Of a stretch of 64,000 nt of DNA, positions 3,330-60,114 are shown in pieces. The DNA is from Candidatus Aminicenantes bacterium (GTDB taxonomy: Bacteria > Acidobacteriota > Aminicenantia > S016-38). How positions within the stretch are numbered: position 1 is the first letter of the stretch; every line of letters starts with the position of its first letter. The notes under the pieces are model-generated. The model ran no database searches, was not told the origin of the DNA, and saw only the letters and a program-made list of their open reading frames with translations. Where the stretch lies: NCBI GenBank assembly GCA_026991555.1, contig JALXBI010000050.1, positions 245-64,244 of the forward strand, written 5' to 3'. The position numbers and the translations under genes were made by a program.

Positions 3330-3342
3330 GTGTCCCCAATCA

Positions 3343-3360: not shown

Positions 3361-3400
3361 ACCTTCCAATAAATCGGGTGACTCATGATAAAATAGTCTT

Positions 3401-16499: not shown

Positions 16500-17857
16500 A
16501 GGTGAAACACAGGGCAAAAATATTGCTTATAGAGGATGATAGGAACTTCCTCATGCCCCTGAAGGAGTTCTTAGAATCCAGGGGATTTGAAGCTCACATA
16601 TCATCTAAGGCGAGGGACGCCATTGAATTATCCAGACACGAGCTATACGATATGTTCATTATAGACCAGAATTTACCGGATATGGAAGGTATAGAACTGG
16701 CTAAGGAATTGCTTTACTTTCAACCTGGAGCCGCCACACTGATAATGACCGCCTATCCCGACGTAAAGAAGGCAGTGAGAGCTATGAGATTAGGGGTGAT
16801 AAACTACATGATAAAACCCTTTGCCCCTGAAGAGCTTCTCGATGAAATCATCAAGACCCTTGAACTCAGAGAATATAAAAACCTGCGGGAACTCCATAAT
16901 TTTTCCCTAAGAAAGGAAAGGGAAAAAATTTGCATTATAGGCAAATCCAGATGGGCTCAGGAGATTCGGGAATTCATTGAAATGGCAGCTAACTCCCTTG
17001 ATACCCCTGTCCTTTTAACCGGCGAAACTGGCACGGGAAAATCCTTAGTGGCAAGGGCTATCCACTACAATAGCCCTATCAGGGAAAAACCGTTTTTAGT
17101 AGTGAACTGCGCCGCAATTCCAGAATCCCTTCTTGAAGCGGAACTTTTCGGTTTTGAGAAGGGGGCATTCACCGGAGCTGAAAAAAGCCGAAAGGGGGTA
17201 TTTGAGCTGGCCAATGGGGGCACTCTATTCCTGGACGAGATCGGTGACATGCCTATTCCAATGCAAGCTAAAATTCTCCATGTGCTGGATTCAGGAAGGA
17301 TAAGGAGAATAGGAGGGGAGAGGGAGATAAAGGTTAAGGTGAGAATTATTGCTGCCACCAACAAAAACATAGAAGAACTGGTCAAAAAGAAGGAGTTCAG
17401 AAGTGATCTTTACTATCGCCTGGCGGTATTGAGCTTTGAACTCCCTCCCCTCAGAAACCGAAGAGAGGATATAATCCCTCTTGCCGAACACTTCCTGAGA
17501 CAATTGTCCAGGGGAAACCATTATGAACTATCTCCCGAGGACAAAGAGGCGCTGGTCAATTACGATTTTCCAGGCAATGTAAGGGAACTGAGAAATATAA
17601 TAGAAAGAGCCTTAATTCTGTCACGCAGAAAAGGGGTTCTCAGTATAAAGGAACTAATCAATAGATCACCTTTCCGGGAAAACATCAGGAAAGATGAATC
17701 CGGGACTTCTGAGAGATTTCCTCCGCTTGAGGAAGTCATAAAAGAACACGTTCATAGGGCCCTTAAGATCACCCGGGGCAACAAGACCGAGGCGGCAAAA
17801 TTACTGGGTATTTCCATCTCCACATTAAAAAGATGGTTAAAAAAATGGTCAAATTGA
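16490..17857 (+). CDS. sigma-54-dependent response regulator (NtrC family: REC, AAA+, Fis-type HTH)
   Basis: REC domain with D at ILLIEDD...DQNLPDMEG. Walker A GETGTGKS. GAFTGA motif (FEKGAFTGA). C-terminal HTH. Confidence 0.85.
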   Translation: MEMKVKHRAKILLIEDDRNFLMPLKEFLESRGFEAHISSKARDAIELSRHELYDMFIIDQNLPDMEGIELAKELLYFQPGAATLIMTAYPDVKKAVRAMRLGVINYMIKPFAPEELLDEIIKTLELREYKNLRELHNFSLRKEREKICIIGKSRWAQEIREFIEMAANSLDTPVLLTGETGTGKSLVARAIHYNSPIREKPFLVVNCAAIPESLLEAELFGFEKGAFTGAEKSRKGVFELANGGTLFLDEIGDMPIPMQAKILHVLDSGRIRRIGGEREIKVKVRIIAATNKNIEELVKKKEFRSDLYYRLAVLSFELPPLRNRREDIIPLAEHFLRQLSRGNHYELSPEDKEALVNYDFPGNVRELRNIIERALILSRRKGVLSIKELINRSPFRENIRKDESGTSERFPPLEEVIKEHVHRALKITRGNKTEAAKLLGISISTLKRWLKKWSN

Positions 17858-17932
17858 TCCGAAGAAGTCATATTTGAGCGGCTCAATTTGACCTATGGTT
17901 ACTTATCGCCGCTTCTCATAAGACTCCAGGTT

Positions 17933-17948
17933 TGGCATGTTTCTTGCT
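17933..17948 (+). promoter_or_regulatory. sigma-54 (-24/-12) promoter TGGCATGTTTCTTGCT upstream of the REC-DUF4388 regulator gene
   Basis: GG and GC elements are separated by exactly 10 nt, matching TGGCAC-N5-TTGCW. It lies very close to the ATG at 17961. Confidence 0.45.
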
Positions 17949-17960
17949 TAATAAGAAACG

Positions 17961-19022
17961 ATGAAAAGGATATTAATAGTGGATGATGATAAAAACTTTC
18001 TTGTTAGCCTGAAGGATGCCCTGGAGAAATACGAAGGCTTTGAAGTCCTGACAGCAACCACCGGATCGGAAGCAGAAAAAATCCTCCGGGAGGAGCCAGC
18101 GGTGGATTTGATCATATCCGATCTGAAAATGGGGGAAATAGATGGCCTCCAGCTACTAACTTACGTTTCAAGGGAATTTCCCTCCCTGCCTTTTATTCTC
18201 ATGACAGCCTATGGATCCCCTGCCATAAAAAAGAAAGTTCAGGAATTGGGGGCAGGATATCTTGAGAAACCCCTCACCTTAAAAACTCTTACAAACGCTA
18301 TAAACACCGTTCTGAAGAAGGAAGAATCCCCAGAAGGGATAATCAAAAATTTCTCGGCTATTTCCCTAGCCCAGCTCATCCGTCTTGAGGGAAAATCCTG
18401 CGATGTGTTGATAATTTCGGAAAGAGGAGAAGAAGGTATTCTGGGCTTTTTATCCGGTGAGTTAACGTATGCAAGGGCTGGAACCCTGGAAGGGGATGAG
18501 GCGGCCAAGGAAATTTTTAAATGGAAAGGAACAAAATTATTCATTAAGGAGTTTCAGCCCCATCCCAAAAACATCCATAGGTCCCTTGAAAGCCTCATTC
18601 TTGAGGCCGCCAGGGAAAAGGACGAAGGGAAAAATTCAGGATTAAATCACAAAGAAAAAAACAAAAAGGAGGTAACTATGCCTTTACCCTATGAGGAAAT
18701 CGTGGAAAGTTTCAAGGAAATTCCCGGCTACGTTGGGTCAGCGATTTTCAATGTCAACGGAGAACAGCTGGTATTTCATGCGCTAAAGGATGCAGATAGG
18801 CTGAAAAAATACTTCCTTCAGATGACCAGCCTGTTCGTAGCAGGCCAAAAGGCAGCGGAGAAAACAGGAGCAGGAGGTCTGGATTTTATCCAGACTGACT
18901 CGGATCTTGGGAAATTCCTGGCAAGACGAGGGGAAAAATTCATCGCCATGCTTATGCTGGAAGAAGACGGCAACATAGCTCTGGCCAAGGAGGCTCTGGA
19001 AGAAGCAGCCAAGAAAATTTAA
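17961..19022 (+). CDS. response regulator: REC plus DUF4388 plus a C-terminal Roadblock/LC7-like domain
   Basis: REC domain (ILIVDDDKNF...DLKMGEIDG). Middle DUF4388-like segment (FSAISLAQLIRLEGKSCDVLI...GEEAAKEIFKWKGTKLFIKEF). C-terminal ~100-aa domain with an MglB/Roadblock-like pattern. Confidence 0.65.
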   Translation: MKRILIVDDDKNFLVSLKDALEKYEGFEVLTATTGSEAEKILREEPAVDLIISDLKMGEIDGLQLLTYVSREFPSLPFILMTAYGSPAIKKKVQELGAGYLEKPLTLKTLTNAINTVLKKEESPEGIIKNFSAISLAQLIRLEGKSCDVLIISERGEEGILGFLSGELTYARAGTLEGDEAAKEIFKWKGTKLFIKEFQPHPKNIHRSLESLILEAAREKDEGKNSGLNHKEKNKKEVTMPLPYEEIVESFKEIPGYVGSAIFNVNGEQLVFHALKDADRLKKYFLQMTSLFVAGQKAAEKTGAGGLDFIQTDSDLGKFLARRGEKFIAMLMLEEDGNIALAKEALEEAAKKI

Positions 19023-19134
19023 CGGGACATAACGGAATTTCCTTAAAAGGGGAGAACAGTATTATAGTTCTCCCCCTTGACATCTCATTTATAATTCTTC
19101 TTAATTACAATTTAATTTAAATAAGGGGTGTAAT

Positions 19135-19707
19135 ATGTCGCTTAGAATTAAGTTTGCGGATTTGTTGACCTTTCTTTCCTTCAAGTCCTCACCAAACAAA
19201 CTTATAAGGGTGCTTTTCTCTTACGGCTCACAAAATGGGGAAATGGCCTTTAAGAACGGAGAAATGTGGGAATTAAGATTCCCCGACATGGAAACGGACT
19301 CTGCCATAAACTTTCTCCATGACAGAAAAATAGTAATAAAAGAAATAAAGGAGCTGCTCCCGGGCAATACAATAGAAACCCTGTCACACCTCATTTCCGG
19401 ATTTTCAAAGGAATTTCTTATATACCACGCCCGGGAAGGAGAATTAACGTGGGAAATATCATCTGAAGAATTGAAGGATTTCTATTTAAAATCTAAAAAG
19501 AAAATCCTCGAAAATCTCAAGCACAGAACGGACATTGTATGGCTTGAGAACGACGAAAATCCGGGGATCTATGCTCTTAAGCTAAAGAAGGAGCTCGTGG
19601 TATTCACCTTCTTCAATACGTCCCCCTCTGCCAGGGAAGAATTCTTCAATTCAACTCCGCCTTTCCTCAGAGAACTGTCAAAGATTACATCAGAATGCGT
19701 TCCCTAA
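19135..19707 (+). CDS. stand-alone DUF4388-domain protein
   Basis: IKFADLLTFLSFKSSPNKLIRVLFSYGSQNGEMAFKNGEMWELRF matches the DUF4388 pattern. Paralogue of 60115..60714. Confidence 0.5.
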   Translation: MSLRIKFADLLTFLSFKSSPNKLIRVLFSYGSQNGEMAFKNGEMWELRFPDMETDSAINFLHDRKIVIKEIKELLPGNTIETLSHLISGFSKEFLIYHAREGELTWEISSEELKDFYLKSKKKILENLKHRTDIVWLENDENPGIYALKLKKELVVFTFFNTSPSAREEFFNSTPPFLRELSKITSECVP

Positions 19708-20112: not shown

Positions 20113-22157
20113 TCTGCTTTTTTCAAAAGCTCCTTCACCGAAGGCTGGTCGGGATTGATTTTAAGGGAAGCCTCAAGGACCTTCCTTGCCTCCCCCTTCT
20201 TACCCAGTTTCAGGTAACAAGCACCTAAGGAATTCAAAACCCTGACATCGCTGTCGTAAATCAAAAGAGATCGCCTATAATAGGATATGGCAGTTTGGCA
20301 ATCCCCCTGAAGCTCGTAGGCCTTTCCCTTGTAAAATAGAATTTCCGGTTCCCCCTTTTCCTCAAATCCTGAAAGAATCCTCAGGGCATCCTTAGGCCTT
20401 TTTTCCACCAGGTATGCTTTTGCAAGGTAAACCGCTGCCTCCTTGAAATCCGGTTTTCCTTCCAGGGCCTTTTCAAGATAAGGGATGGATTTTCTGTATT
20501 CACCCGCATTCTGATACTGAAGGGCCAGGGCGTAGTAAACTATATATTTCCTCTCAAGGGGAAGGTTTTTCGTCACCACCGAGGGTCTGGGGAGAGCGGA
20601 AATCGGACTGACCATGAAGTCCGCAGGGGGGGATTTCTTTTCCCCGATTCTCGCAAAAAGCACATATTCATCCGAAGGAAGTTTCTCCGCTATGGCTCCG
20701 GAATAAACAAAATCCCTTTTGTAGGGAAGGGTGGAAAGCTTTACTGAGGCCAGAACCTTTTCCTCCTCCTCGGTTTGCAGCACCAACTCCAGTTTTTCCT
20801 TCTGCCAAATCTCCTTTGGAAGAGACCAAATTTCCACGGCATATACAATTTTGTCCTTAGGAGTAAAGGCCTTTTTGGCATCCATGTAGTAATAGACATT
20901 GGCTAAGGTAAAGGGTTTCAGGGCGTAAAGGGAAAATTGAGAGGTTTTATATGCCAGAATTGGCTTTCCTATATTGAATTCCCCGGAGGAAGGCACTGCT
21001 ATTCTTTTGTCCCAGTAGGAAAATTCCTTGGATACGGTGTTTTTTACAAGGAGCACCACATCATATGTCCCTTCTATAATGGGGACCTCACCCTGAAGCG
21101 CAAGTCCCCCGCTCTTTACTGCGGAAAGCTCTGAACTTTTGACCTCCACGGTGTAGGTATTCTTAAATTTGGCAAGGACCTTTTCCTCGGATTGTTTTAA
21201 TATAACATCAACCTCAAAGGCAGCCAGGTATTTTCCACCTCCCTCCTTCTGGAAGGTAACCGAGGAGGGCTGGATGGAATAGTGGAGAAAATTTACCCCC
21301 AGGTTCAGGTCCTTTAAGATGTAGGTAATGAAGTCAGCCTTTATGTAATTGAGGCTGTAGTCCACATCAACCATCCCTTTGTATTTAAGAAAATCCTCTG
21401 CGTAGGAAGTATCAAATTCCTTTTCTGGAAGGGAAAGAACATTGGCTATTATAGATGCAGCCTGGGGAGAAGGCTGATAATTGTAAGGTATAGTGCCCGG
21501 TATAAGAGAAAGGGCCACATCGGCAATGGCCGGCGCGTGCTCTCTTAAATATTCGTAGAGCTGCTCGTAATCGGTGGGATTAAGGTCCATGGTATTGGTA
21601 GTTTTAAGAAGCAGGGCATAGGGACCGTCGGAAAGGGGATCGTAAAGCTTGAATTCCCCCATCCCATTCCTCTTGAAGAAAATTATGGCAAAATGGGGAG
21701 GGAGTCCGGGTTTTCCCTGCCCGTAATAATACCAGACCTCTATGGGAACCAATACCTGGCTCATGTAATATCTTTCAATGCTGACGGGCTTTCCCAGAAG
21801 GATGTAAATCCTGCCCCTGTCCGTCTTCCATCCTGGCTTTGGGGAATCTATTCCTAAATATTTATTGGCATAATTAAACCTTTTTATCAGCTCCTGCTTG
21901 AATTCGTTCTGAGGGGTGGCTGGATTGGGGTCCCTGACCCTCCAGAAGGCCTTTATAAAAATGTCCCTTTCCCGGTTGTTCTTCAGTTTAAGGAAAACCT
22001 CCTTCTCCTTGGGGGTTATGACCCACCAGACCAGCTCCAGCCATTTCTGATACTTCAGAGGAAGCTCCTTGATTATCTTCTCTTCCTTAGAAGGAAAGAG
22101 AAAAAAGGCCACAAGGAAAAGAAGAAGTAGTTTCTTTGCCAATCCTGTTTTTCTCAT
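20109..22157 (-). CDS. secreted GWxTD-domain protein with C-terminal TPR repeats
   Basis: Signal peptide. GWKTDRGRIYILLGKP motif. C-terminal TPR-like repeats (YYALALQYQNAGEY..., AVYLAKAY..., LNSLGACYLKLGK). Confidence 0.55.
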   Translation of the reverse strand: MRKTGLAKKLLLLFLVAFFLFPSKEEKIIKELPLKYQKWLELVWWVITPKEKEVFLKLKNNRERDIFIKAFWRVRDPNPATPQNEFKQELIKRFNYANKYLGIDSPKPGWKTDRGRIYILLGKPVSIERYYMSQVLVPIEVWYYYGQGKPGLPPHFAIIFFKRNGMGEFKLYDPLSDGPYALLLKTTNTMDLNPTDYEQLYEYLREHAPAIADVALSLIPGTIPYNYQPSPQAASIIANVLSLPEKEFDTSYAEDFLKYKGMVDVDYSLNYIKADFITYILKDLNLGVNFLHYSIQPSSVTFQKEGGGKYLAAFEVDVILKQSEEKVLAKFKNTYTVEVKSSELSAVKSGGLALQGEVPIIEGTYDVVLLVKNTVSKEFSYWDKRIAVPSSGEFNIGKPILAYKTSQFSLYALKPFTLANVYYYMDAKKAFTPKDKIVYAVEIWSLPKEIWQKEKLELVLQTEEEEKVLASVKLSTLPYKRDFVYSGAIAEKLPSDEYVLFARIGEKKSPPADFMVSPISALPRPSVVTKNLPLERKYIVYYALALQYQNAGEYRKSIPYLEKALEGKPDFKEAAVYLAKAYLVEKRPKDALRILSGFEEKGEPEILFYKGKAYELQGDCQTAISYYRRSLLIYDSDVRVLNSLGACYLKLGKKGEARKVLEASLKINPDQPSVKELLKKAE

Positions 22158-22192
22158 GATAATATTTTATCAGAAAAATAAGGAGGAATATC

Positions 22193-22750
22193 ATGAGGAA
22201 AGTTTTACTGGTTTTTATTTTCCCCTTCGTTGTTCTCGCAACCTCCTTTGATATAATGCCCGGGGTGGGAATAGTTAAGGGCTCAGAGGTTCTCGATACT
22301 CACCTTTTCAACATTAAGCTATCCTCAGGGGCCGATTACGGGATAAGGGCTCAGCTCTCCACTACCCTGTTGGGCCTGGAGGCTTATTACGTTGTAAATT
22401 CCCTGGAAACCAATGCCATTGATAAAATCCGCCACCTTGACCTGGACTTTTCGGACAAGTTCGTAAATTACGGGGTAGGCGTATTCCTTCACGGAAGCGG
22501 TCTTATCGCTCCCTATCTTTCCTTAACCTACGGTAAGACGAAATTTACCGGCACCCATCGTTACGCTCCCGACGGCAAGCACTTCACGGTGGGACTGGGT
22601 GCAAAGGTCATGCTTTCCTCCATAGGAGTATGGGGAGAGGCAAGGGTTCTCAGGGTTATGGATATTCTGGAAGAATACGAGGAATTTGCTGATCCGGGGA
22701 AATTCACCACCTTCTCCGTGAATGTAGGCGCGGTGCTCAGGTTTAAGTGA
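22193..22750 (+). CDS. small outer-membrane beta-barrel protein (porin/OmpW-like)
   Basis: Signal peptide, alternating amphipathic beta strands, C-terminal aromatic residue (LRFK). Confidence 0.4.
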   Translation: MRKVLLVFIFPFVVLATSFDIMPGVGIVKGSEVLDTHLFNIKLSSGADYGIRAQLSTTLLGLEAYYVVNSLETNAIDKIRHLDLDFSDKFVNYGVGVFLHGSGLIAPYLSLTYGKTKFTGTHRYAPDGKHFTVGLGAKVMLSSIGVWGEARVLRVMDILEEYEEFADPGKFTTFSVNVGAVLRFK

Positions 22751-23448
22751 AGAAAGTAAAGGAGGCCAGGGAACTTTTAAAAAACAGGGAAGCTGTTCCC
22801 TTAGAGGGAAAACATCTGGTGGCCGATGGCCTCCGTTGGGGATTGAAGCCCCTTTATCTCTTCCTTTCCAAGGAGGATCCGCAAGTCATCGCCCTTGCCG
22901 AGAAAAGGGGAATCTCTCCCATTTTCATCGGCGAAAGGGCCATGCGTTCCCTTTCTTCCCTGAAGACCCCACCGGGGGAACTCCTTTTAGTTGCTCCTCC
23001 CCAGTGGAAGGAGGAAGATTTTTCAAAAATCGTGGTCCTGGAGGAAGTTCAGGACCCCACCAATGTAGGAAGCATACTGAGAACGGCCTATTGTTTGGGA
23101 TATGATGCTGTATATATCGATGCTCATTCCGCCCACCCCTTCTCCCCAAAAACCGTAAGGGCCAGTGCCGGATATTCCCTGAGAATGCCGGTCTTCCGGG
23201 TAGCTCTTCCCGAAAAACTACGGGAATGGAAGGGCAGAAAAAGGATTCTCGGCACCTTTCCTAAGGGAGGAGAGGCCCCGAAGCCATTAAAGGAAGATTT
23301 CGTTCTGATCTTTGGAAACGAATCCAGGGGAATAAGCCCTCAGCTGAGTCAGCTTGTGGAGCGCAAGCTCACCATACCCATGGAAAGGGGGGAGTCCTTG
23401 GGGGTGGCGGCCTCTGCTGCCATACTCCTCTATCTTCTCAGGGGCTGA
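22747..23448 (+). CDS. TrmH/SpoU-family RNA 2'-O-methyltransferase
   Basis: VVLEEVQDPTNVGSILRTAYCLG, FGNESRGI and GVAASAAILLY are the SPOUT motifs. Confidence 0.75.
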   Translation: MKKVKEARELLKNREAVPLEGKHLVADGLRWGLKPLYLFLSKEDPQVIALAEKRGISPIFIGERAMRSLSSLKTPPGELLLVAPPQWKEEDFSKIVVLEEVQDPTNVGSILRTAYCLGYDAVYIDAHSAHPFSPKTVRASAGYSLRMPVFRVALPEKLREWKGRKRILGTFPKGGEAPKPLKEDFVLIFGNESRGISPQLSQLVERKLTIPMERGESLGVAASAAILLYLLRG

Positions 23449-24418
23449 AGAAGGTGGCCAGGTTAACCCCTTTTTCGAAAAACCAGCCCAAGGGAGGATA
23501 GTGGGCCCTGGAGGGAGGAAGGGAGAGGGAGGCTGAGGTTCTCTGGAGGAGGAGCCTTTCCTCAGAAGGGGAAATCACAGCCTGAATATACTCCTTCCTT
23601 TCCCCGAGGAAATTTAAAACCTCCTCGGGACCCGGGACCTCCTTTAGAAGCACCGTTCTCGCCGGGATTAGAGGGGGAAATTCCTTTACCAGAAAAAGGG
23701 CTTCATGGGAAAGAAGGCAAAAATCCTCAGCATAATAGGTGAGATATTTTGTGTAATACTCAAAGGAAAACCTGTTGAAACTTCCCTGGGGGGGTCTTTC
23801 CCAGGCGGCTTCCTTAAAAATCTCACAAGCCCTTTTAAGTTCCCATTTTTCAGCGAACAAAACCACCGGCGAAAGACAACCCTCCCCATCAAAGCTCAGG
23901 GCGTCCAGGAAAAAGGGATAGGGGTCATCCTTCACTATACCTATGGAAAAGCGAGGGCCAAAGAACCTGAAGGGAACCCCGAGCTTGGAAAGGGCCTGCC
24001 CCAGACCCTTCGCTCCGAAACCCACCACAAAGTCAAATTCCCGGGCATAACTATTTAAATGGCTGTGGGGAAAAAACACGAATTTCAAACCGGAAAACTC
24101 CCCAAGGAGCCGGTAAAAAAGTTCTTCAGCCAGGGGTCTTTTAAAAACTGCCTCCAGACCGTAGGCATCAAGGAGTGGCCCCATCTGGAAAGGTATGAGG
24201 GGGACATTGGCCGGCAGAAGCACCAGGACCCTGCGGGGGCCTGAAAGGTGAGGGGGCTCAAATTCCAGAAGCTGGCGGGAAAGGTAAAGGAGAATGTCCT
24301 TTAAAACATTCTCCTGATAACCCTTAGAGGATACAGGCCTTCCCTTTTCAATTTCCCGGACAATCTTAAGGGCAGCCTCGGCCAGCCTTTCTGTCCACTT
24401 ATCTGAAGACATATCCAC
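23438..24418 (-). CDS. LuxC-like acyl-CoA reductase candidate (assignment mostly by context)
   Basis: 326 aa, overlaps the upstream LuxE-like gene by 20 nt. No strong motif recognised by eye. Confidence 0.35.
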   Translation of the reverse strand: MDMSSDKWTERLAEAALKIVREIEKGRPVSSKGYQENVLKDILLYLSRQLLEFEPPHLSGPRRVLVLLPANVPLIPFQMGPLLDAYGLEAVFKRPLAEELFYRLLGEFSGLKFVFFPHSHLNSYAREFDFVVGFGAKGLGQALSKLGVPFRFFGPRFSIGIVKDDPYPFFLDALSFDGEGCLSPVVLFAEKWELKRACEIFKEAAWERPPQGSFNRFSFEYYTKYLTYYAEDFCLLSHEALFLVKEFPPLIPARTVLLKEVPGPEEVLNFLGERKEYIQAVISPSEERLLLQRTSASLSLPPSRAHYPPLGWFFEKGVNLATFFSP

Positions 24419-25316
24419 AGCCCCTTTCTTCTTCGGTGGCCCTTCCTAAGACGAAAAATCCATCCTCGGTTGCCTCCACGAGGTCAGGAACTAAAAGGGC
24501 AGAAACCGTGCACAGATTGGCAAAATCAAAAACCCTGAGGAGCCCCCTCCCCTCGGTTAAAACCCCTGCCCAGGGATGTGGGGTATAGGGTCTTAGCGAT
24601 GGGGCGTAAAACTGGGAAAAAAGCTCCGCCATTCCGTATTCGCTCCAGAACTCCGCCCAAGGAAAGAATCGCTTAGCGTAATTATGAAGCTGATTTCTAT
24701 CGTATTTAAGACCCAGGCCCTTGTATCCTCCTGTTTCTATAACCACCTCTATTTCCGGAAGGAGGCTTCCCTCATCCTCAAGCCACCGGCAAAGGCGAAG
24801 TAGCTGAGTGGAGGTGAGGAACAAAACCCCTTTTTTGCCCTTTAGTTTTTCGTAAGCCTCCTTGGGTTCCAGCTCATAGGACCAATTTAGGTATTCAACG
24901 GCGGGAAAAAGACTTATCATGAAGGAAAGGGAGGAGCGAGGAAAAAGGGAAAAGGGAGGAATAAGGGATAAAACCCTTCTTCCCTTAAAGGGAAAAGAGC
25001 GAAGGGCTGATATTTTGTAGAGCTGGAGGGAGTGGACGCTGTAAAAAACCCTGCTTTTTTCTCCGGTGGTTCCGCTGGAGAGAAAAAAAACCTCTGCCTT
25101 CCCGCAGGAGAACACCCTTTCCCTTTTGAAAAATTCCACGGGAAGGAAGGGAATATCCTCCAGTCTTTTTACCCTCCCCTTACCCAATTTCTCTGCAAAT
25201 TTCCTGTAGACAGGATTATTTTTCAGTTGAAAATTCACCACCTCTAAGGCAAGCTCAGGGGAAAAACTTTCCCCTTCCTTTATAAATTCCTGAACCCTCT
25301 TAAAAAGCTCCTTCAT
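24399..25316 (-). CDS. LuxE/PaaK-like acyl-adenylate-forming enzyme (acyl-protein synthetase family)
   Basis: SSGTTGEKSRVFYS is the adenylate-forming P-loop-like motif. Its size fits the LuxE clade. Confidence 0.5.
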   Translation of the reverse strand: MKELFKRVQEFIKEGESFSPELALEVVNFQLKNNPVYRKFAEKLGKGRVKRLEDIPFLPVEFFKRERVFSCGKAEVFFLSSGTTGEKSRVFYSVHSLQLYKISALRSFPFKGRRVLSLIPPFSLFPRSSLSFMISLFPAVEYLNWSYELEPKEAYEKLKGKKGVLFLTSTQLLRLCRWLEDEGSLLPEIEVVIETGGYKGLGLKYDRNQLHNYAKRFFPWAEFWSEYGMAELFSQFYAPSLRPYTPHPWAGVLTEGRGLLRVFDFANLCTVSALLVPDLVEATEDGFFVLGRATEEERGCGYVFR

Positions 25317-25810
25317 AGATAACCCATGTTTTTCAGGGCCTGAGTATAAGTTTTTCCTTCCCTATTCCCCGTGGAAGGAGCACACCCCACATATTTTTTC
25401 CCTTCAAGATAAAGGGAGCAGAAGGGAAGACCGTTTTCCTTTATGGCCTTCCATATCTCAAAATCGCTCAGCCCTTTGAGGGGAAAGATTTCCTTTACAG
25501 GGCCGGAAAGAGGTTTGGGTTTTCTTAGGGGTTCGTAGACTTCGGAAAAGCCCTGCGAGGAAAGATAGGGAAGGAGGAATTCCTCCCTCAGGTAATTGCA
25601 CCATTCATCCCTTCCCCCTTCAAAATCCCCTGCCTCCACATCCAGCCTGATGGCTTTGAACCCGAAGTGCCTCTCCGCTTCCATTAAATAATCGTAAACC
25701 TGAGGGAGATAAAATCCTGGGTCAATGAATAGCACGGCATCAACCTCTCTGGCATAGAGATGCAAAAGAAGGGTGGTTTCCTTATCTCCCACAAACCAAA
25801 GCGCCTTCAT
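25313..25810 (-). CDS. PAPS-reductase-family (adenine-nucleotide alpha-hydrolase fold) protein with a degenerate PP-loop
   Basis: FVGDKETTLLLHL sits where SGGKDS is expected. The C-terminal LPFCSLYLEGKKYVGCAPST resembles the conserved LY..Gy.siGC..CT region. Confidence 0.5.
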   Translation of the reverse strand: MKALWFVGDKETTLLLHLYAREVDAVLFIDPGFYLPQVYDYLMEAERHFGFKAIRLDVEAGDFEGGRDEWCNYLREEFLLPYLSSQGFSEVYEPLRKPKPLSGPVKEIFPLKGLSDFEIWKAIKENGLPFCSLYLEGKKYVGCAPSTGNREGKTYTQALKNMGYL

Positions 25811-27180
25811 CCTAACCCCAGCTTTTTCCAGTAATACCTGAAGGAACGATAGGAAATGCCAAGAAGCTCTGCCGCCTTTTTCTTATCACCCTTGGCCTTG
25901 ACTACCGCGGTTTTTAGGAATTTCCTCATCTCCTCGTTCAGGTAATCCTCCAGGTTAAATTTTCCCTTCATTTCAAGGAATTCTTCTATGTTAATTCCGC
26001 TATCAATCTTCTTTTTCTGAAATAGTTTTTCCGGAAGGTCCTGAACGGTTATATAGGAGCCCGTTTCCATAACCACAGCTCTTTCCACCACATTCTGAAG
26101 CTCCCGTATATTTCCAGGCCAATGATATGTTTCCATGGCCACGAGGGCATCCTTTTCTATCCCGAGAATCCCTTTATCGTGCTTTTTGTTAAACTGGTCA
26201 ATGAAATGCTGGACCAGAAGGGGTATGTCCTGCCTCCTTTTTCTGAGGGGCGGAAGTTCTATTCTTACCACATCCAGTCTGTAGAAAAGGTCCTCCCTGA
26301 ACTCCCCCCTTCTGACAATCTCATCTATGTCCTGATTGGTGGCGGTTATTATTCTCACATCAACTTCTATTTCCTCCTCCCCCCCAACCCTTCTTATTTT
26401 TTTATCCTGGATAGCGGTAAGGAGTTTTGCCTGCATGTTTAAACTCATCCCCGAGATCTCATCAAGAAATAGCGTCCCTCCCTTTGCCACCTCAAACAAT
26501 CCCCTTTTCCTGGAGACCGCTCCGGTGAAAGCTCCCTTTTCGTGGCCGAAGAGTTCGCTTTCCAGAAGGTGTTCCGGGATAGCCGCACAGTTTATAGAGA
26601 CAAATTTCTGCCTCCTTCTGGGACTCAACTCGTGAATAACCCTGGCAAGGAGGGTTTTGCCGGTGCCGCTCTCTCCGGTAATAAGAACATTCACATCGCT
26701 GGGGGCTATCCTCCTTACCAGATCCATGATTTTCTCCATGGCAGGACTTTTGGCCACCAGCTTTTTTTCCTGGTAAATAGCTTGAAGCTCACGTCTGAGT
26801 TCCTCCACCTCCCTGCGGAGGGAACTGGACTCTAAGGCCTTCCTCACCACAATTTCAAGGGTTTCAAGGTCAAAGGGCTTCAGTATGTAATCCTCTGCCC
26901 CCATTTTAAGAGCCTTTACGGCATCCTCCACTGACGCATAAGCCGTTATTAAAATGACGGGGACTTCCGGAGAAGATTTCTTTATTCTTTCCAGAAGGTC
27001 AATTCCATTAAGTTCTCCGGGAAGTTTTATATCGCTTAAAACGATATCAAAATCCTCGTAAATTGAAAGGGCTTCTTCTGCGGTTACCACTCCCTTGGTA
27101 AAATAACCCTTTCCCTGGAAAAAGAGGACCAGTATCTCCAGGAGCTGTTCGTCGTCTTCCACAACTAAGATTTTTTCCAT
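25807..27180 (-). CDS. pilR: sigma-54-dependent response regulator, PilR-like
   Basis: REC, AAA+ (GESGTGKT; FEVAKGGTLFLDEI) and C-terminal HTH domains. Adjacent to the pilS-like kinase and pilBTC. Confidence 0.75.
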   Translation of the reverse strand: MEKILVVEDDEQLLEILVLFFQGKGYFTKGVVTAEEALSIYEDFDIVLSDIKLPGELNGIDLLERIKKSSPEVPVILITAYASVEDAVKALKMGAEDYILKPFDLETLEIVVRKALESSSLRREVEELRRELQAIYQEKKLVAKSPAMEKIMDLVRRIAPSDVNVLITGESGTGKTLLARVIHELSPRRRQKFVSINCAAIPEHLLESELFGHEKGAFTGAVSRKRGLFEVAKGGTLFLDEISGMSLNMQAKLLTAIQDKKIRRVGGEEEIEVDVRIITATNQDIDEIVRRGEFREDLFYRLDVVRIELPPLRKRRQDIPLLVQHFIDQFNKKHDKGILGIEKDALVAMETYHWPGNIRELQNVVERAVVMETGSYITVQDLPEKLFQKKKIDSGINIEEFLEMKGKFNLEDYLNEEMRKFLKTAVVKAKGDKKKAAELLGISYRSFRYYWKKLGLG

Positions 27181-28424
27181 CTTATCCTGACCTCCCCTGA
27201 AGTGGCGGTGAGTATACCGTTTATGCTGGCTATAACATAGGCCAGCTCCAGGGCAGAGAAGCCTTTACCGGTGGGAAGTTTCTTCAGATTCGGACTGAGA
27301 ATCATTGAGATTTCCTCCTCCCTCAGAGGGGGCTCCCTTCTGAGGATAATCTCCCCCTCTTTCACCTCCTCCTCAAATCTTGCCCCATCCAAGTATAAAA
27401 TTTCCTTGAGAATAGCCAGAGCTCTTGTTGGAGATGGATTGGCCCCTAAGGAAGTCCAGCGAAGAAGAATCTCGTTAATTTTCTCTGCCCTTTCCCTGAT
27501 TTTCCACATAAGTTCGTTTTTTCTTTCCTCCTCAAGGCTGGGAAGAAGCTGAAGCAGACCGAGAATGGATGCCAGGGGATTTCTGAGTTCGTGGGCAATG
27601 ATGGATATGGTTTCTCTCACCCCTTCCCTCCTCAGCATAAACCATCTCTGAGTATTGTCGCTTATGACGAAAATTTGCCCGTAGGAAAGGGGAAATCTCT
27701 TTACTGTGTAAACCCTCCCCGAACTTCTTACAGTCCCCTCCTTGCCTATAAGTTCTTGGAGGGGCATCTCCTCGCACCCGCGGCCTTTAAGGACCACCTT
27801 CCCGTCCTGCATTAAAACCACGCATTCGTGGGTATGGCTCAGTATTTCGTCCAGTTTTGAGGCAAAAACCTTCTCCTCCTCCCTCAACATGATTTTTTTC
27901 GTTAACTTGTTTAGTTCATCTCTGGAAATTATCAGTATATAAGCCAGGGCAGGGAATCCCAGGGAGTAAACTAAAAGCCCTGTGGTAAACTCCTTATAGT
28001 TGAAATTAATGTTGGGTATTTTAAAATAAAAGGTAGTGAAGGAAAAGAGAAGGTAGGAAAGCAGTGGGGTCAGAGAGGCTATAAAGAGCCTCTTCCGGTC
28101 CGAAAGGAAGTAGAAGGCCTCCAGTAGCAGGAAAACGAAAAGAAAATAAAGAAGGCTTTCGTATCCCCCGGTATTCAATATTAGATAGGATATGAGAAAC
28201 CAATCTCCTATAAGTTGGGCCACTATAAGCCGGTCTTCTCTTACCCCTATACGAAGAAGGAACAGGTAAAGAACCGACAGGGTAAAAAGAAGACCGAGAA
28301 ACGAGAAGAAAAATCTCACCGGAAATAAGTTCAGGAAGGCAAGATGGATAATTATGAGGGATAGTAGAAGAAAGAAACCTATAAATATGCGAAGTTCTAT
28401 AAGCTTAAGAATCTTGCGGGGCAT
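27165..28424 (-). CDS. pilS: membrane sensor histidine kinase, PilS-like
   Basis: N-terminal polytopic membrane domain of about 6 TM segments. H-box HELRNPLASILG. Degenerate C-terminal ATPase domain. Confidence 0.65.
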   Translation of the reverse strand: MPRKILKLIELRIFIGFFLLLSLIIIHLAFLNLFPVRFFFSFLGLLFTLSVLYLFLLRIGVREDRLIVAQLIGDWFLISYLILNTGGYESLLYFLFVFLLLEAFYFLSDRKRLFIASLTPLLSYLLFSFTTFYFKIPNINFNYKEFTTGLLVYSLGFPALAYILIISRDELNKLTKKIMLREEEKVFASKLDEILSHTHECVVLMQDGKVVLKGRGCEEMPLQELIGKEGTVRSSGRVYTVKRFPLSYGQIFVISDNTQRWFMLRREGVRETISIIAHELRNPLASILGLLQLLPSLEEERKNELMWKIRERAEKINEILLRWTSLGANPSPTRALAILKEILYLDGARFEEEVKEGEIILRREPPLREEEISMILSPNLKKLPTGKGFSALELAYVIASINGILTATSGEVRIRWKKS

Positions 28425-29623
28425 TAAAATCTGCCCAGAAGGTTGAATATGGGAAGGTACATGGAAAGAACTATACCTCCCACCAGACCTCCCAGGAACA
28501 GAACCATTATGGGCTCCATTACGGAGATCAATGCGCTTACTGCAGAATCCACCTCTTCTTCGTAGAAATCCGCTATTTTATTTAACATTGTATCCAGAGC
28601 ACCTGTGGCCTCCCCGGCTTCCACCATCTGACTTATCATAACAGGTATATAGGGACTTTTCCGCAGGGGTTCGCTTAGGCTCTTTCCTGCTGCTACCTCC
28701 TCCCTGGCATCCAGGATCAATTTTTCTATTATGGTATTTCCAGCCGTTTTTGCAGAAATGTCCAGGGCAAGGAGTATGTCCACTCCTGATGTGACAAGGG
28801 TCGCCAGGGTCCTCATCACCTTGGCCAGTGCTCCCTTTAAAATTAGAGGCCCTATTACCCAGAGCTTCAGTTTAAGCTTATCTACAGTCCTCCTCCCACC
28901 TGGAGTGGAAACATAAAATTTATACAGGAGAAAGAGCCCTATCAGACCTCCCATCCAGAGGTAAAATTGGTGGATAAGGAAATTGCTCGTGCTGATAACT
29001 ATTTGGGTAGGAAGAGGCAGTTCAGCACCCAGATCGTGGTAAAGTTTTGCAAAGGCAGGAATAACCTTCCAGAGGATAAAGGCCGTAATAAGAATAGCTA
29101 TGGTTAAAACGGCTATAGGATAGGCCAGAGCTGATTTTATTTTGCTCACCAGGGCCTTTATTTTTTCCAGGTAATCCGCAAGTCTCTGCAGGATTATATC
29201 AAGGGTTCCACCAGTCTCTCCGGCAGCTACCATATTTACATATAGGGAATCAAAGACCTCCGGATGTTTGGCAAAGGCGTTGGAAAGGGAACTTCCGCCC
29301 CTTACATCTTCGGTCACCTTTTCCAGCACTGCTTTAAACCTTTTGTTGCTCTGTTGCTCTGCTAAGGCAGCAAGCGCCTGGTCTATAGCAAGACCTGCGT
29401 TTACCATAACAGAGAGTTGTCTGGTAAATATAGCGAGTTCCTTAAGGCTTGCGGCTTTTTTAAGCCTCGGAAGCTTGAGTTCAAAACCCTTCTTTTTAAG
29501 GTAGGATATCTGAATACCTTCTCTTAATAGAGCTCTCCTTACGTCTTCTTCCGAGGGGGCAGCCCTCTCGCCGGTTACCATCTGCCCCATCCTGTTGATG
29601 CCTTTAAAAACAAAAACAGGCAT
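28424..29623 (-). CDS. pilC: type IV pilus inner-membrane platform protein PilC (GspF family)
   Basis: Two GspF repeats, 399 aa, typical PilC architecture. Confidence 0.85.
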   Translation of the reverse strand: MPVFVFKGINRMGQMVTGERAAPSEEDVRRALLREGIQISYLKKKGFELKLPRLKKAASLKELAIFTRQLSVMVNAGLAIDQALAALAEQQSNKRFKAVLEKVTEDVRGGSSLSNAFAKHPEVFDSLYVNMVAAGETGGTLDIILQRLADYLEKIKALVSKIKSALAYPIAVLTIAILITAFILWKVIPAFAKLYHDLGAELPLPTQIVISTSNFLIHQFYLWMGGLIGLFLLYKFYVSTPGGRRTVDKLKLKLWVIGPLILKGALAKVMRTLATLVTSGVDILLALDISAKTAGNTIIEKLILDAREEVAAGKSLSEPLRKSPYIPVMISQMVEAGEATGALDTMLNKIADFYEEEVDSAVSALISVMEPIMVLFLGGLVGGIVLSMYLPIFNLLGRF

Positions 29624-29632
29624 TACTACCTC

Positions 29633-30775
29633 CTACATGGATTTTCTTAACTTGGTTTCTATTACACCCGCCATGGCCGGAGGGGTGTAAATATGCCTCA
29701 CCGCTGCAGGCCCTCTTCTTATAAGATCATGAAGCTCCTCAGGATAGGAACTGGCCCCCATGGCGGTCTCTAAGGTGATAAGCCGCTTAAAATAAAGGGC
29801 TGCAAGGGACTGATTAAAGGTGTGCATCCCAGTGGCTTCCTGACCTGTTTGCATTGATGAATAGATCTGATGAATCTTGTCCTCCCTGATGAGGTTCCTT
29901 ATGGCTGGAGTGGGGACTAACACTTCGGTGGCGAGAATCCTTCCCCTGCCATCAGCCCTGGGAAGAAGGGATTGGGTTACTATACCTTCAAGTATCATGG
30001 AAAGCTGGGTTCTAACCTGGGACTGCTGATGGGGAGGGAATATGTCTATTATCCTGGTTATGGTTTGAGCCGCAGAATTGGTATGGAGGGTGGCCAGGGT
30101 AAGGTGCCCGGTTTCGGCAATCCTCAGGGCCGCCTCCACAGTTTCCAGATCCCTCATCTCACCGATGAGAACCACATCCGGGTCCTCCCTGAGCACAGAC
30201 CTCAGGGCATTGTGAAAGGACTTGGTGTCGGTATGAATTTCCCTCTGGTTTATAAGCGCCCTCTTGTGAGAATGAAGATATTCAATGGGGTCTTCTATGG
30301 TTACTATGTGGACTGGCCTTTCCTTATTAATCTTGTCAATCATAGTGGCCAGAGTGGTGGATTTTCCTGAGCCTGTGGGCCCTGTGACCAGAATGAGTCC
30401 CCTGGGTTTCTCACAGAACTTCTTAACCACCGGAGGAATTCCCAGCTCCTCAAAGGACCTTATTTCATAGGGAATCTTTCTGAAGGCCCCTGCCACTGCA
30501 CCTCTCTGCATAAAAACATTGGCCCTGAATCTGGCAAGCCCCTTTATGCCGAAGGAGAAATCAATTTCCCAGTTTTCCTCAAAACGGTGCTTCTGGGTAT
30601 CGGTTAATATGGAATATATGAGGCTCTTGGTCTCTGGAGGGGATAGAGGGGGAAAGTTGAGCCTTTCCAGCGCCCCGTTTACCCTTATAACAGGAGGAGA
30701 GCCTGTGGTTACATGCAGGTCTGTTCCTCCCCTTTCTATCATGATCCTCAAAAGTTCCACCAGAGTAAGAGCCAT
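29633..30775 (-). CDS. pilT: twitching-motility retraction ATPase PilT
   Basis: Walker A GPTGSGKST, then DIHV...IEDPIEY and the PilT C-terminal region. Confidence 0.85.
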   Translation of the reverse strand: MALTLVELLRIMIERGGTDLHVTTGSPPVIRVNGALERLNFPPLSPPETKSLIYSILTDTQKHRFEENWEIDFSFGIKGLARFRANVFMQRGAVAGAFRKIPYEIRSFEELGIPPVVKKFCEKPRGLILVTGPTGSGKSTTLATMIDKINKERPVHIVTIEDPIEYLHSHKRALINQREIHTDTKSFHNALRSVLREDPDVVLIGEMRDLETVEAALRIAETGHLTLATLHTNSAAQTITRIIDIFPPHQQSQVRTQLSMILEGIVTQSLLPRADGRGRILATEVLVPTPAIRNLIREDKIHQIYSSMQTGQEATGMHTFNQSLAALYFKRLITLETAMGASSYPEELHDLIRRGPAAVRHIYTPPAMAGVIETKLRKSM

Positions 30776-30785
30776 TTTTCCTCCT

Positions 30786-32537
30786 TTAATACTTCACTGT
30801 TTCCCTCACCACTTCCTCTATGGAAGTAATACCCTGTTTTATTTTCTCAAGGCCGCTTCTTCTGAGGGTAATCATACCCTGTTCTATGGCCTTTCTCCTT
30901 ATTTCCGCAGATGAGGCTCCGGAAAGTATGAGTTCCTGAATTTCCTCCGTCACCTCAAGGACCTCAAAAAGACCTATCCTGCCCTTGTAACCCGTGTTAT
31001 TGCAGTGCTTGCAGCCAACGGGTTTGTAAACGGTGACATTTTTCGCCTCCTCCGGGGTAAATCCGAGCTCTATTAGAACCTGAGGAGGCACATCTGCAGG
31101 CTCCTTACATTTATTGCACAGCCTTCTTACGAGCCTCTGAGCCACTATAGCCACCACGGAGGTTGCCACTAAGAAGGGCTCTATTCCCATGTTTATGAGC
31201 CTGGTAACAGCGCTGGCAGCATCATTGGTATGGAGGGTGGAAAGAACCAAGTGACCCGTAAGGGCTGCTTTAATGGCTATCTCAGCGGTTTCGAAATCCC
31301 TTATTTCTCCCACCAGTATTATGTTGGGGTCCTGCCTTAGAAAAGCCCTGAGGGCTGATGCAAAGGTTAACCCTATGTCCTCCCTTATGTGGACTTGGTT
31401 TATTCCATAAAGATTAAATTCCACAGGGTCCTCGGCAGTCATTATATTAACTTCCGGGGTATTGAGGGTGGAAAGGGCAGAGTAAAGGGTATTGGTTTTT
31501 CCGGAGCCTGTGGGGCCGGTCACCAGTATCATTCCCCAGGGCCTTTTTATGGCCTTCTGGAATTTTTCAAGACTTTCCGGTTCAAAACCCAGCTGGGTAA
31601 GGTCAAGTCGGAGCTGATCCCTATCCAGAATCCTTATAACCACCTTCTCCCCGAAAATAGTGGGAAGAATGGAAACCCTCATGTCCACTTCCTTTTTCCT
31701 TCCCTCGTCTGTTTTCACCTTCATCTTTATTCTGCCATCCTGGGGAAGCCTTTTCTCGGCTATGTTAAGATGGGACAGAATCTTGATTCTTGAAACTATA
31801 CCGTCCTTCATTCTGAGGGGAGGTGTCATAACGGGATGAAGCACACCGTCTATTCTGTATCTAACCCTTAATTCCTTCTCGTAAGGTTCTATATGTATGT
31901 CTGAAGCTCCCCGGTTTATGGCTTCCCTTAAAATAAGATTAACCAGCCTTACTACGGGTTTTTCCTCCGCCTCCTTGCTCAGTGTCCTCACATCCGCCTC
32001 TTCCTCCTCCTCCACCATTTCCAGATCCTCTGCCTCCAGATCAAGGTCAGCAAATTCATCCATGCTTTCTCCCATTATGTCTTCCATCTCCTCTTTAACC
32101 TCTATTTCGTGCTCAGAACCGTAAAGTTTCTCTATGGCTTCTATTATAGAAGACTCCGAGGCCACCGCCGGCTGTATGTTAAGGCCGGTAAGGAATTTTA
32201 GCTCCTCTATGGCGTAAAGATTGGTTGGGTCGGCCATAGCTACAGTTAAAGTAGCCCCTGCCCTGTCAACGGGAACAAGCATGTATTTTCTGGCGATCTC
32301 CGCGGGAACCCATTCTTTTACCTTCGGGGAAAGTTCAAACTTCGAAAGGTTTATATAGGGATAACCGTATTGCCTGGAAAGAACAGAAGTAACTTGCTCT
32401 TCAGTGGCAAAGCCCAATTTAATTAATATGGAACCGAGCCTGCCCCCATGGAGTCTCTGATATTCCAGAGCTTCTTCAAGTTGTGAGGGTGTGATTATCC
32501 CCTCTTTGACCAGGAGCTCACCCAATTTGCTCGCCAT
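30786..32537 (-). CDS. pilB: type IV pilus assembly ATPase PilB (GspE family with N-terminal T2SSE_N domain)
   Basis: Walker A GPTGSGKT. Tetracysteine CNKC...CKHC. N-terminal MshEN-like domain. Confidence 0.85.
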   Translation of the reverse strand: MASKLGELLVKEGIITPSQLEEALEYQRLHGGRLGSILIKLGFATEEQVTSVLSRQYGYPYINLSKFELSPKVKEWVPAEIARKYMLVPVDRAGATLTVAMADPTNLYAIEELKFLTGLNIQPAVASESSIIEAIEKLYGSEHEIEVKEEMEDIMGESMDEFADLDLEAEDLEMVEEEEEADVRTLSKEAEEKPVVRLVNLILREAINRGASDIHIEPYEKELRVRYRIDGVLHPVMTPPLRMKDGIVSRIKILSHLNIAEKRLPQDGRIKMKVKTDEGRKKEVDMRVSILPTIFGEKVVIRILDRDQLRLDLTQLGFEPESLEKFQKAIKRPWGMILVTGPTGSGKTNTLYSALSTLNTPEVNIMTAEDPVEFNLYGINQVHIREDIGLTFASALRAFLRQDPNIILVGEIRDFETAEIAIKAALTGHLVLSTLHTNDAASAVTRLINMGIEPFLVATSVVAIVAQRLVRRLCNKCKEPADVPPQVLIELGFTPEEAKNVTVYKPVGCKHCNNTGYKGRIGLFEVLEVTEEIQELILSGASSAEIRRKAIEQGMITLRRSGLEKIKQGITSIEEVVRETVKY

Positions 32538-32576
32538 TTCTATCTCCTTAAAAAATCTTCCTTTCTAAAAATTATA

Positions 32577-33584
32577 TTAAAACGCATTGGTAATAGCAAG
32601 GGAAATCATAAATCCGGCTTTCTCCCCGTCTCTCAAGTTCATCCCAGCCCTTAAGCTTAATCTTCTGTAACGAAGGGCGCCGTAAAGGGAATAGAATTTT
32701 TCCCCTTCCCACTGGCGAAGCCCAACTCCCAGGTTAATTACCCTGGCATCAAATAACAAGGAGAGAAAATACCTGTTTTTGTAGGAGGAGGCATCCGCCC
32801 CGGCCGATAGGTAAAGGGCAGAGGAAATTTTGTAGGAACCTGCCACAAGGATGTATTCAGGCGTAAGCTTTTCGCCCCTGGATATGGGAATGTCAAGCAT
32901 GGATACCGCAAACATTAATTTTCCGGTGAGAAAACCCGCAAAGCCCACATCCAGGGCCATCCTCTTTCCTGCCTCTTCCTCCCCTTCCTCAAGGGAAAGG
33001 AGTTCTCCCGGAGAAGCGAAATTCCTCCCGTCGGATATGGGCAAACTGAAACTCCAATTTTTGTAAAAAACATATTTTGTGGTTATCCCCATGAAAATTC
33101 TGTTTTTTCTCAAAAAATATGCCTTGGAAAAGAAAACCTCCTTTCTTTGTCTTATCTTATAATTCACCAGGAAATCTTCAGGATTTTCAGGGGAAAATTT
33201 CTCGCCCTCTGTGCCGAAAGCCGCAAGTTCCCTGTGATAAATGTATCCAAAGGCCCCTCCCCTCCCGCTAACATATACCGTCCTGGAAAAACTGGTGTAG
33301 GAGCTTCCCTCTTCCGCCCTTTTGAGCTCATCGTAAGAAGGGGGGGATTTTTCCCCAAGCACTGAGAAAAGCCCGGAACAATCCATGGCGAAGTTTCCCT
33401 GGGAATACTGAAGGGAAGGGAAGTTAAAGGCTGCTAAGGCCGGATTGTAAAAAGCTCCAGACTCCTGAGCCAGTGCTGTAAGGGCAGCCGAGGGCATTAC
33501 TCCAATGGGATCAAGAACCGGAGGCTGGAAATCCGAAGCCAGAATTGAAGAAGAAAGAATTAGAATAAACAGAATTTTTCTCAT
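32577..33584 (-). CDS. outer-membrane protein, unknown family
   Basis: Signal peptide, beta-rich, C-terminal Phe (ITNAF). Confidence 0.35.
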   Translation of the reverse strand: MRKILFILILSSSILASDFQPPVLDPIGVMPSAALTALAQESGAFYNPALAAFNFPSLQYSQGNFAMDCSGLFSVLGEKSPPSYDELKRAEEGSSYTSFSRTVYVSGRGGAFGYIYHRELAAFGTEGEKFSPENPEDFLVNYKIRQRKEVFFSKAYFLRKNRIFMGITTKYVFYKNWSFSLPISDGRNFASPGELLSLEEGEEEAGKRMALDVGFAGFLTGKLMFAVSMLDIPISRGEKLTPEYILVAGSYKISSALYLSAGADASSYKNRYFLSLLFDARVINLGVGLRQWEGEKFYSLYGALRYRRLSLRAGMNLRDGEKAGFMISLAITNAF

Positions 33585-34919: not shown

Positions 34920-34924
34920 AATTC

Positions 34925-36995: not shown

Positions 36996-37017
36996 GGAAA
37001 AATTTTAACATATTAAC

Positions 37018-37930: not shown

Positions 37931-37946
37931 TGGCATGGTTTTTGCT
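37931..37946 (+). promoter_or_regulatory. sigma-54 promoter TGGCATGGTTTTTGCT upstream of pilA
   Basis: GG-N10-GC spacing with TGGCAT and TTGCT elements. Followed by RBS AAGGAGG and the ATG at 37983. Consistent with PilR-dependent pilin expression. Confidence 0.5.
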
Positions 37947-60111: not shown

Positions 60112-60114
60112 AGT

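Follow-up and report, generated by a model that had tools for sequence, protein, structure and literature searches.

The only characterised members of the LuxE and LuxC protein families are the two subunits of a fatty-acid reductase, in which a C-terminal cysteine of LuxE takes the acyl group from acyl-AMP and then passes it on to LuxC (PMC6279958). Homologues of both genes are also found in the group II polar-flagellin glycosylation islands of Aeromonas, together with acyl carrier protein (ACP) and fatty-acid genes (PMC7874193). Here, a stretch of 64,000 nucleotides (nt) from the genome of a Candidatus Aminicenantes bacterium (assembly GCA_026991555.1, contig JALXBI010000050.1) was investigated, in which three genes follow the type IV pilus regulator genes pilS and pilR (pilSR) without any gap. 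These three, the trio, encode a PAPS-reductase-like, a LuxE-like and a LuxC-like protein, and the last two are referred to as the pair. The whole 64-kb stretch is termed the window, and all coordinates refer to it.

An initial annotation of the window had taken the coupling to PilS-PilR as a hint of an acylation or small-molecule pathway associated with pilin or the surface. The explanation that we prefer, with moderate confidence, is a different one: the pair encodes a LuxE/LuxC-type carboxylic-acid reductase which was ancestrally partnered by an aminotransferase, was secondarily placed behind pilSR and does not serve the pilus.

The LuxE-like and LuxC-like proteins

The LuxE-like open reading frame (ORF) at 24399-25316 on the minus strand encodes a protein of 305 amino acids (aa). 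It scored 17.4 bits against Pfam LuxE (PF04443), below the gathering threshold (GA) of 24.9, and 29.8 bits (E=3e-7) against NCBIfam LuxE (NF052244), whose cut-off of 550 was not reached. As a single sequence it matched the solved Photobacterium LuxE (7xc6_E) with E=9e-6, and a subfamily profile of 30 members matched the same chain with E=1.8e-18 over positions 13-243. The protein is also approximately 35% identical over its full length (range about 31-37%) to Bacteroidota proteins that are positive for PF04443. The nucleotide motifs SSGTTGEKS (residues 80-88; SSGTTGxxS in the family) and TGGYK (195-199) were invariant in the 30 sequences. Gly299-Cys300 was invariant as well, with Cys300 located six residues from the C-terminus (RGCGYVFR), and aligned with the KGCS of LuxE at 362-365, although the alignment of this short segment is not significant by itself. 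Homology is clear despite the sub-threshold scores, and the 305-aa protein is, as judged from its sequence, a LuxE-like acyl-adenylate-forming and self-acylating synthetase. The LuxE/PaaK-like identity guessed in the initial annotation held in the profile test.

The LuxC-like ORF at 23438-24418, also on the minus strand, encodes 326 aa. The ATG at 24412 is the start used in its relatives; it is likely the true start here too and would give 324 aa. The match to Pfam LuxC (PF05893) was marginal (12.7 bits, E=0.06, GA 21), and sequence and profile searches of the PDB sequences returned a spurious designed repeat protein as the sole match. The AlphaFold model of the protein had a mean confidence (pLDDT) of 82.7, and in a Foldseek search of the PDB it obtained 313 matches at E<=0.001. 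The 50 listed were aldehyde dehydrogenases (ALDH) or LuxC, and the best TM-score among the matches listed was 0.70, with a root-mean-square deviation of 4.7 Å, to LuxC 7xc6_A. Ten relatives were found by the subfamily profile, and all ten exceeded the Pfam LuxC threshold. When the subfamily was compared with these LuxC-positive relatives by hhalign, a probability of 99.9% and E=3.4e-31 were obtained over 296 columns. Three residues, Asn71 (LPANVP), Lys93 (FKRP) and Cys181 (DGEGCLSP), were invariant in 10-14 subfamily members and aligned with the N-V(P), L-K and GC(L/M)SP motifs of the LuxC-positive relatives, respectively. With fold and profile comparison as the decisive evidence, the 326-aa protein is predicted to be a LuxC-like thioester (acyl-enzyme) reductase with a shortened ALDH fold. 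What had been put forward as a putative LuxC-like reductase was thereby confirmed, and the two family assignments support the view that the last two genes provide what is needed to activate a carboxylate and to reduce it to the aldehyde.

The LuxC-like family is tiny: 1.84 billion representatives yielded 9 clusters (50% identity) at E<=1e-10. A word-indexed protein search returned 6 proteins for the LuxC-like and 4 for the PAPS-reductase-like protein, and a profile search and locus scans were needed to see the family. The ratio of nonsynonymous to synonymous substitution rates (dN/dS) was 0.13 for the LuxE-like gene (against the related locus L001), 0.15 for the LuxC-like gene (against the closest relative) and 0.16 for the PAPS-reductase-like gene. 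This range of 0.13-0.16 for the trio, compared with 0.01-0.06 for the pil genes against the closest relative, shows that the genes are functional and under purifying selection. Decay or pseudogenisation of the trio was considered and is ruled out by dN/dS values of 0.13-0.22.

Distribution of the pair and its neighbours

When 185,579 species genomes were scanned with the LuxE-like alignment, the close subfamily was represented by 14 loci and Bacteroidota by 66. The LuxC-like alignment, used on metagenomes, yielded 14 more loci, in part duplicates of those from the genomes. Without exception, the two genes of the pair are adjacent and overlap in the subfamily loci (14/14 from genomes and 14/14 from metagenomes). 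The pil genes and the PAPS-reductase-like gene accompany the pair in five genomes only, namely that of the window, L001, L002, L003 and GCA_054038595 (L081-L083). Misassembly of a metagenome-assembled genome as the cause of the arrangement is ruled out, since five independent assemblies display it. The same five genomes share the whole 15-kb block from RNase PH through a downstream GWxTD/TPR gene. They form one clade with complete block synteny and thus count as one evolutionary event.

The pair was never found beside pil genes in the approximately 25 other loci. In L004, the next relative of the window clade, it is located beside divergent O-antigen-ligase-like and heparinase-like genes. Outside the window clade, a class-III aminotransferase (PF00202) of the ArgD/LysJ/GABA-AT type lies directly upstream of the pair, on the same strand and overlapping it, in 23 of the 24 loci that have an upstream flank. 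In a neighbour-joining tree of the LuxE-like proteins, the window clade and L004 are sister to an aminotransferase-linked clade, and a second such branch lies outside. The window clade is in this tree nested by aminotransferase-linked branches, and the pil-adjacent arrangement is consequently derived. Conservation of the trio at pilSR, on which the proposed coupling depended, fails outside one narrow clade consisting of the window and the four genomes that share all its flanks. The pair itself is an ancient module that has been passed on vertically in a small set of uncultured lineages, mostly from hot environments, which carry the NCBI labels Aminicenantes, WOR-3 and Hydrothermota.

A large branch has QueD and QueE immediately behind the pair. 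In 18 related loci the order aminotransferase, LuxE-like, LuxC-like, QueD, QueE was found (L007-L011, L013, L014 and L087-L097; for example L013:8721-13034), in genomes of the WOR-3/Hydrothermota type. QueD and QueE make 7-carboxy-7-deazaguanine (CDG), which is a carboxylic acid, and the queuosine precursor preQ1 is 7-aminomethyl-7-deazaguanine. The five-gene unit sits in three unrelated surroundings: upstream of it are PBP4, RfaE and PurD, a TauE-family exporter or a histidine kinase, and downstream a TonB-type receptor, MatE, GNAT or DUF192. The QueD homologue carries CxxxHGH, which is a QueD signature (PMC10516641), and the QueE homologue SIQGEG and the radical SAM motif CxxxCxxC. In the window clade and its sister clade, neither QueD nor QueE is encoded next to the pair. 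With PADLOC, neither the trio nor the aminotransferase nor QueD matched a defence system, and the matches of the QueE homologue were limited to generic radical-SAM viperin models.

The PAPS-reductase-like protein

The first gene of the trio (25313-25810, minus strand) encodes 165 aa and scored 44.7 bits against Pfam PAPS_reduct (PF01507; GA 22.5) in two stretches. The better of these covers only positions 131-174 of the 175 in the profile, and about the central third of the domain is missing. The equivalog level was not reached for NCBIfam CysH, APS reductase and CysD (13-24 bits versus cut-offs of 154-254). The protein keeps the N-terminal strand-loop-helix, in which the PP-loop position is degenerate and reads WFVGDKET (VGDKET). 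It also carries the D-x-G...LPQVY motif (DPG..LPQVY) and the C-terminal FPL..W..I....LP..SLYL..G....GC (GCAPS) that is common to APS reductase and CysD. Neither the ECGLH catalytic cysteine nor the CC...CxxC iron-sulfur ligands were present in the 165-aa sequence. Its GCAPST aligns with the GCEPCT of the APS reductase 2goy, the second cysteine being changed to serine, and the C-terminus reads ALKNMGYL, of which MGYL is invariant.

Four clusters only were detected for this protein in 5.8 billion proteins, all of them adjoining pilR and LuxE, and among the 80 loci its hidden Markov model found L001-L003 only. The structure model was too poor to use (pLDDT 49.5). From its motifs, the 165-aa protein is to be regarded as a truncated member of the PAPS-reductase/CysD family specific to the window clade, and probably as a nucleotide-binding accessory. 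The initial description of it as PAPS-reductase-like with a degenerate PP-loop agrees with the Pfam score, with the addition that the domain is truncated.

Layout and packing of the gene run

From pilB at 32537 down to 23438 all genes are on the minus strand, as had been annotated initially, and the run reaches further upstream, to 34477, by way of a 335-aa secreted protein whose family was not recognised and RNase PH (32577-34477). It then comprises pilB (30786-32537; NCBIfam type_IV_pilB, 789 bits) and pilT (29633-30775; pilT_fam, 504 bits), both above the cut-offs and encoding the type IVa pilus ATPases, pilC for the platform protein (28424-29623; PilC, 415 bits), a PilS-like membrane histidine kinase (27165-28424), a PilR-like sigma-54-dependent response regulator (25807-27180) and the trio. 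The run ends at a convergent SpoU-family RNA methyltransferase gene (22747-23448, plus strand), which overlaps the LuxC-like gene by 11 nt, 3′ end to 3′ end.

Overlaps of 4-20 nt had been claimed throughout. This was true for the last four junctions, with overlaps of 16 nt between pilS and pilR, 4 nt each between pilR and the 165-aa ORF and between the 165-aa and 305-aa ORFs, and 20 nt between the 305-aa and 326-aa ORFs (14 nt if the latter starts at the ATG at 24412). It was not true for the first three, where pilB and pilT are separated by 10 nt, pilT and pilC by 9 nt, and pilC and pilS overlap by 1 nt. Such packing is ordinary here: 27 of the 47 same-strand neighbour pairs in the window overlap, the spacing is at most 10 nt in 35 of the 47 (median over all pairs, -4 nt), and plainly unrelated ORFs are linked in other gap-free runs as well. 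The presence of RNase PH and the 335-aa protein inside the pil run shows that unrelated genes get packed together here. The tight packing of pilSR and the trio is not above the local background and is statistically not unusual for this genome.

Within 22000-36000, sigma-70 promoters were not in excess (17 versus 12.4±4.1 in shuffled sequence) and neither were terminators (24 versus 23.5±5.8), which gives no grounds for an internal promoter or terminator. Rfam identified no RNA element in the trio region, and the single match in the window was a tRNA at 61255. The trio is probably co-transcribed with pilSR, because the genome leaves almost no intergenic space.

PilS-PilR and other genes in the window

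The PilR-like protein displays REC, AAA+ and HTH_8 domains (Pfam Response_reg, Sigma54_activat, AAA_lid_14 and HTH_8) and has NtrC/AtoC-type matches in NCBIfam. The expected target of PilR is pilA (37983-38438, plus strand), which encodes a type IV pilin with N_methyl and T2SSG domains. A sigma-54-type promoter, TGGCATGGTTTTTGCT, was found at 37931-37946 on the plus strand, 37 nt upstream of the pilA start and with one mismatch from TGGCAC-N5-TTGCW. No comparable sigma-54 site was found near the trio.

The PilS-like kinase has a HisKA domain (35.8 bits) with an intact H-box, HELRNPL, and a six-helix membrane domain that scored slightly below the threshold of 6TM_PilS (26.4 bits, GA 27). Pfam detected no HATPase_c in it at E<0.1. 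HisKA is followed by approximately 90 residues, in which a G2-like TGKGFS is all that could be recognised, and the kinase may lack the usual mode of ATP binding. Its gene is kept at 70-90% identity in L001-L003.

A second near-consensus sigma-54 promoter (TGGCAT-N5-TTGCT, as at pilA) is located at 17933-17948 on the plus strand, before a response-regulator gene at 17961-19022. The latter is adjoined by the gene of a second sigma-54 activator (16490-17857), which is 41% identical to the PilR-like protein. The signalling module at 15519-19707 (plus strand) is duplicated in the window at 57868-60714 (minus strand), the pairs being 15519-16499 and 59110-60111 (41% identity), 17961-19022 and 57868-59097 (35%), and 19135-19707 and 60115-60714 (29%). 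Between the pil operon and pilA, the lipid A and lipopolysaccharide core genes for LpxK, Kdo transferase and heptosyltransferase are located at 34925-37857, and the organism thus has an outer membrane. The first part of the window (1-4000) has a G+C content of 0.37-0.40, compared with 0.44-0.50 elsewhere, and several very short ORFs on both strands; it may be foreign or mobile DNA.

Proposed reaction and alternative explanations

By analogy with LuxE and LuxC of Vibrio and Photobacterium (PMC6279958), the activity of the pair may be depicted as follows. The 305-aa enzyme would adenylate a carboxylate with ATP and the acyl group would then move onto its own Cys300, from which it would pass to Cys181 of the ALDH-fold partner and there be reduced to the aldehyde by NAD(P)H. 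In most lineages the aldehyde would then be transaminated, and with the aminotransferase as the ancestral upstream partner the usual end product would be a primary amine. A rearrangement in the window clade would have brought the pair to its place behind pilS-pilR, with loss of the aminotransferase from the upstream position, which the clade-specific truncated PAPS-reductase-like gene would now occupy. There is no indication of the trio acting on the pilus, and a function in the pilus is probably lacking.

Several points weigh against the proposal of a relocated reductase without a role in the pilus. The ATGA-type overlaps of 4 nt from pilR onward persist in the clade, in which the trio proteins have fallen to 50-66% identity, and some selective advantage of co-expressing the trio with pilSR is conceivable. 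The Aeromonas islands likewise provide a precedent for LuxE and LuxC homologues beside the genes of a surface appendage. When QueD, QueE and the aminotransferase were used as tblastn queries, no match was obtained in the window or in L001-L004. Finally, the proposal does not explain the role of the 165-aa protein, and it names no specific carboxylate as the substrate.

A more specific possibility, which we consider unlikely, is that the pair is a CDG reductase which, together with the aminotransferase, would convert CDG by way of 7-formyl-7-deazaguanine to preQ1 and so bypass QueC and QueF. The window pair would then be an orthologue whose partners are encoded at another place in the genome. 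The basis of this possibility is gene clustering together with chemical logic: the five-gene order is kept in 18 loci across three unrelated flanking contexts, the QueD and QueE signatures are present, and the conversion of a carboxylate to an aldehyde and then to an amine is the chemistry expected of the three enzymes, with CDG as the acid and preQ1 as the amine. Against it stands the absence of QueD and QueE beside the pair in the window clade and its sister clade, and in the window also that of the aminotransferase. No biochemical precedent was found in the literature either; the fates of CDG known in a survey from 2023 are QueC, QueC* and the decarboxylase DpdL only (PMC10516641), and a literature search found no paper with the term 7-formyl-7-deazaguanine and none titled on a route from CDG via the aldehyde and an aminotransferase to preQ1. 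The extended version, in which the window pair is a CDG reductase with scattered partner genes and the PAPS-reductase-like protein, itself distantly related to the PP-loop enzyme QueC, is a clade-specific accessory of this chemistry, is likewise given a low probability.

That the pair is a classical Lux-type reductase, supplying fatty aldehydes from long-chain fatty acids to the synthesis of lipids, waxes, alkanes or fatty amines, appears distinctly improbable. The characterised members of both families have this function and the best structural match was to the LuxC-LuxE complex 7xc6, but none of the loci examined has a gene for a LuxD-type acyl transferase or a luciferase beside the pair. 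Both proteins score below the curated thresholds and are much shorter than their counterparts, with 305 versus 373 aa for LuxE and 326 versus 477 aa for LuxC. Furthermore, the constant aminotransferase, often with QueD and QueE, points to a small polar substrate.

Very improbable is the remaining explanation, in which the trio is a pathway dedicated to the pilus and co-regulated with PilS-PilR, for pilin acylation or modification or for a surface-associated small molecule: the trio does overlap on the same strand as pilSR and keeps this arrangement in five genomes, and the Aeromonas precedent leaves the idea a low probability, but the five genomes represent a single event, the other loci have the aminotransferase upstream of the pair instead of pil genes, tight packing is the default of the genome and includes RNase PH in the same run, the sigma-54 promoter is at pilA only, and the locus encodes no glycosyltransferase, ACP or acyltransferase.

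Implications

For research on pili the consequences are small, since compaction of the genome in a single clade accounts best for the apparent coupling. The juxtaposition with pilSR is real but ordinary, and the association with QueD and QueE is the more interesting lead. The comparison of loci delimits a small subfamily of LuxE/LuxC-type carboxylate reductases, so far uncharacterised, with a class-III aminotransferase, and often QueD and QueE, as fixed neighbours. If the clustering reflects function, the subfamily would represent a natural cascade from carboxylate to amine, and, should the CDG route hold true, possibly an alternative route to preQ1 that is cheaper in ATP and fills a possible pathway hole in uncultured thermophile lineages.

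Comparison with known systems

In the Aeromonas group II islands (PMC7874193), LuxE- and LuxC-family genes are found beside surface-appendage genes, as they are in the window. There, however, they are located among pse, glycosyltransferase, ACP, ketoacyl-ACP reductase and AMP-dependent synthetase genes, none of which is present at the window locus, and the function of the luxE and luxC homologues in the islands is putative.

The Bacteroidota proteins of the LuxE family (PF04443, approximately 330 aa, annotated as acyl transferase and uncharacterised) resemble the 305-aa protein over their full length, at the identities given above. In contrast to the window gene, theirs are stand-alone genes with no LuxC-like gene of the window subfamily within 10 kb in the 66 loci (L015-L080). 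They were considered as a clue to the partner of the pair and rejected as uninformative, since they are solitary. Most often, at about 40 of the 66 loci, they have a divergent gene of approximately 180 aa as the upstream neighbour.

The pil genes of the window resemble PilS-PilR pilin control in having a PilS-like six-helix kinase and a sigma-54 activator adjoining pilBTC, with a -24/-12 promoter before the pilin gene. They differ from it in that the kinase is without a recognisable HATPase_c and that, in the window clade, three metabolic genes are joined to the 3′ end of the operon. With CysH and CysD (PF01507), the 165-aa protein has in common the strand-loop-helix at the PP-loop position, D-x-G...(F/L)P(E/Q)xY and the C-terminal FPL..W....LP...LY..G..s.GC, whereas the central third of the domain, the ECGLH cysteine and the CC...CxxC ligands are lost.

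Among the closest described systems is the LuxC-LuxE fatty-acid reductase of luminous bacteria (Photobacterium phosphoreum complex, PDB 7xc6; PMC6279958). It too consists of two proteins encoded by adjacent genes: an adenylating subunit with an ANL-type nucleotide motif and an acyl-accepting cysteine in a short C-terminal tail (Cys300 in the window protein), and an ALDH-fold subunit with a catalytic cysteine (Cys181 in the window protein), Asn and Lys. The predicted chemistry, from carboxylate via acyl-AMP and thioester to aldehyde, would also be the same. The window proteins differ in being about 20-30% shorter and in falling below the Pfam and NCBIfam thresholds. The pair is not accompanied by LuxD, LuxAB or a fatty-acid context and its substrate is probably not a long-chain fatty acid; elsewhere in the subfamily, its partner is a class-III aminotransferase, with or without QueD and QueE.

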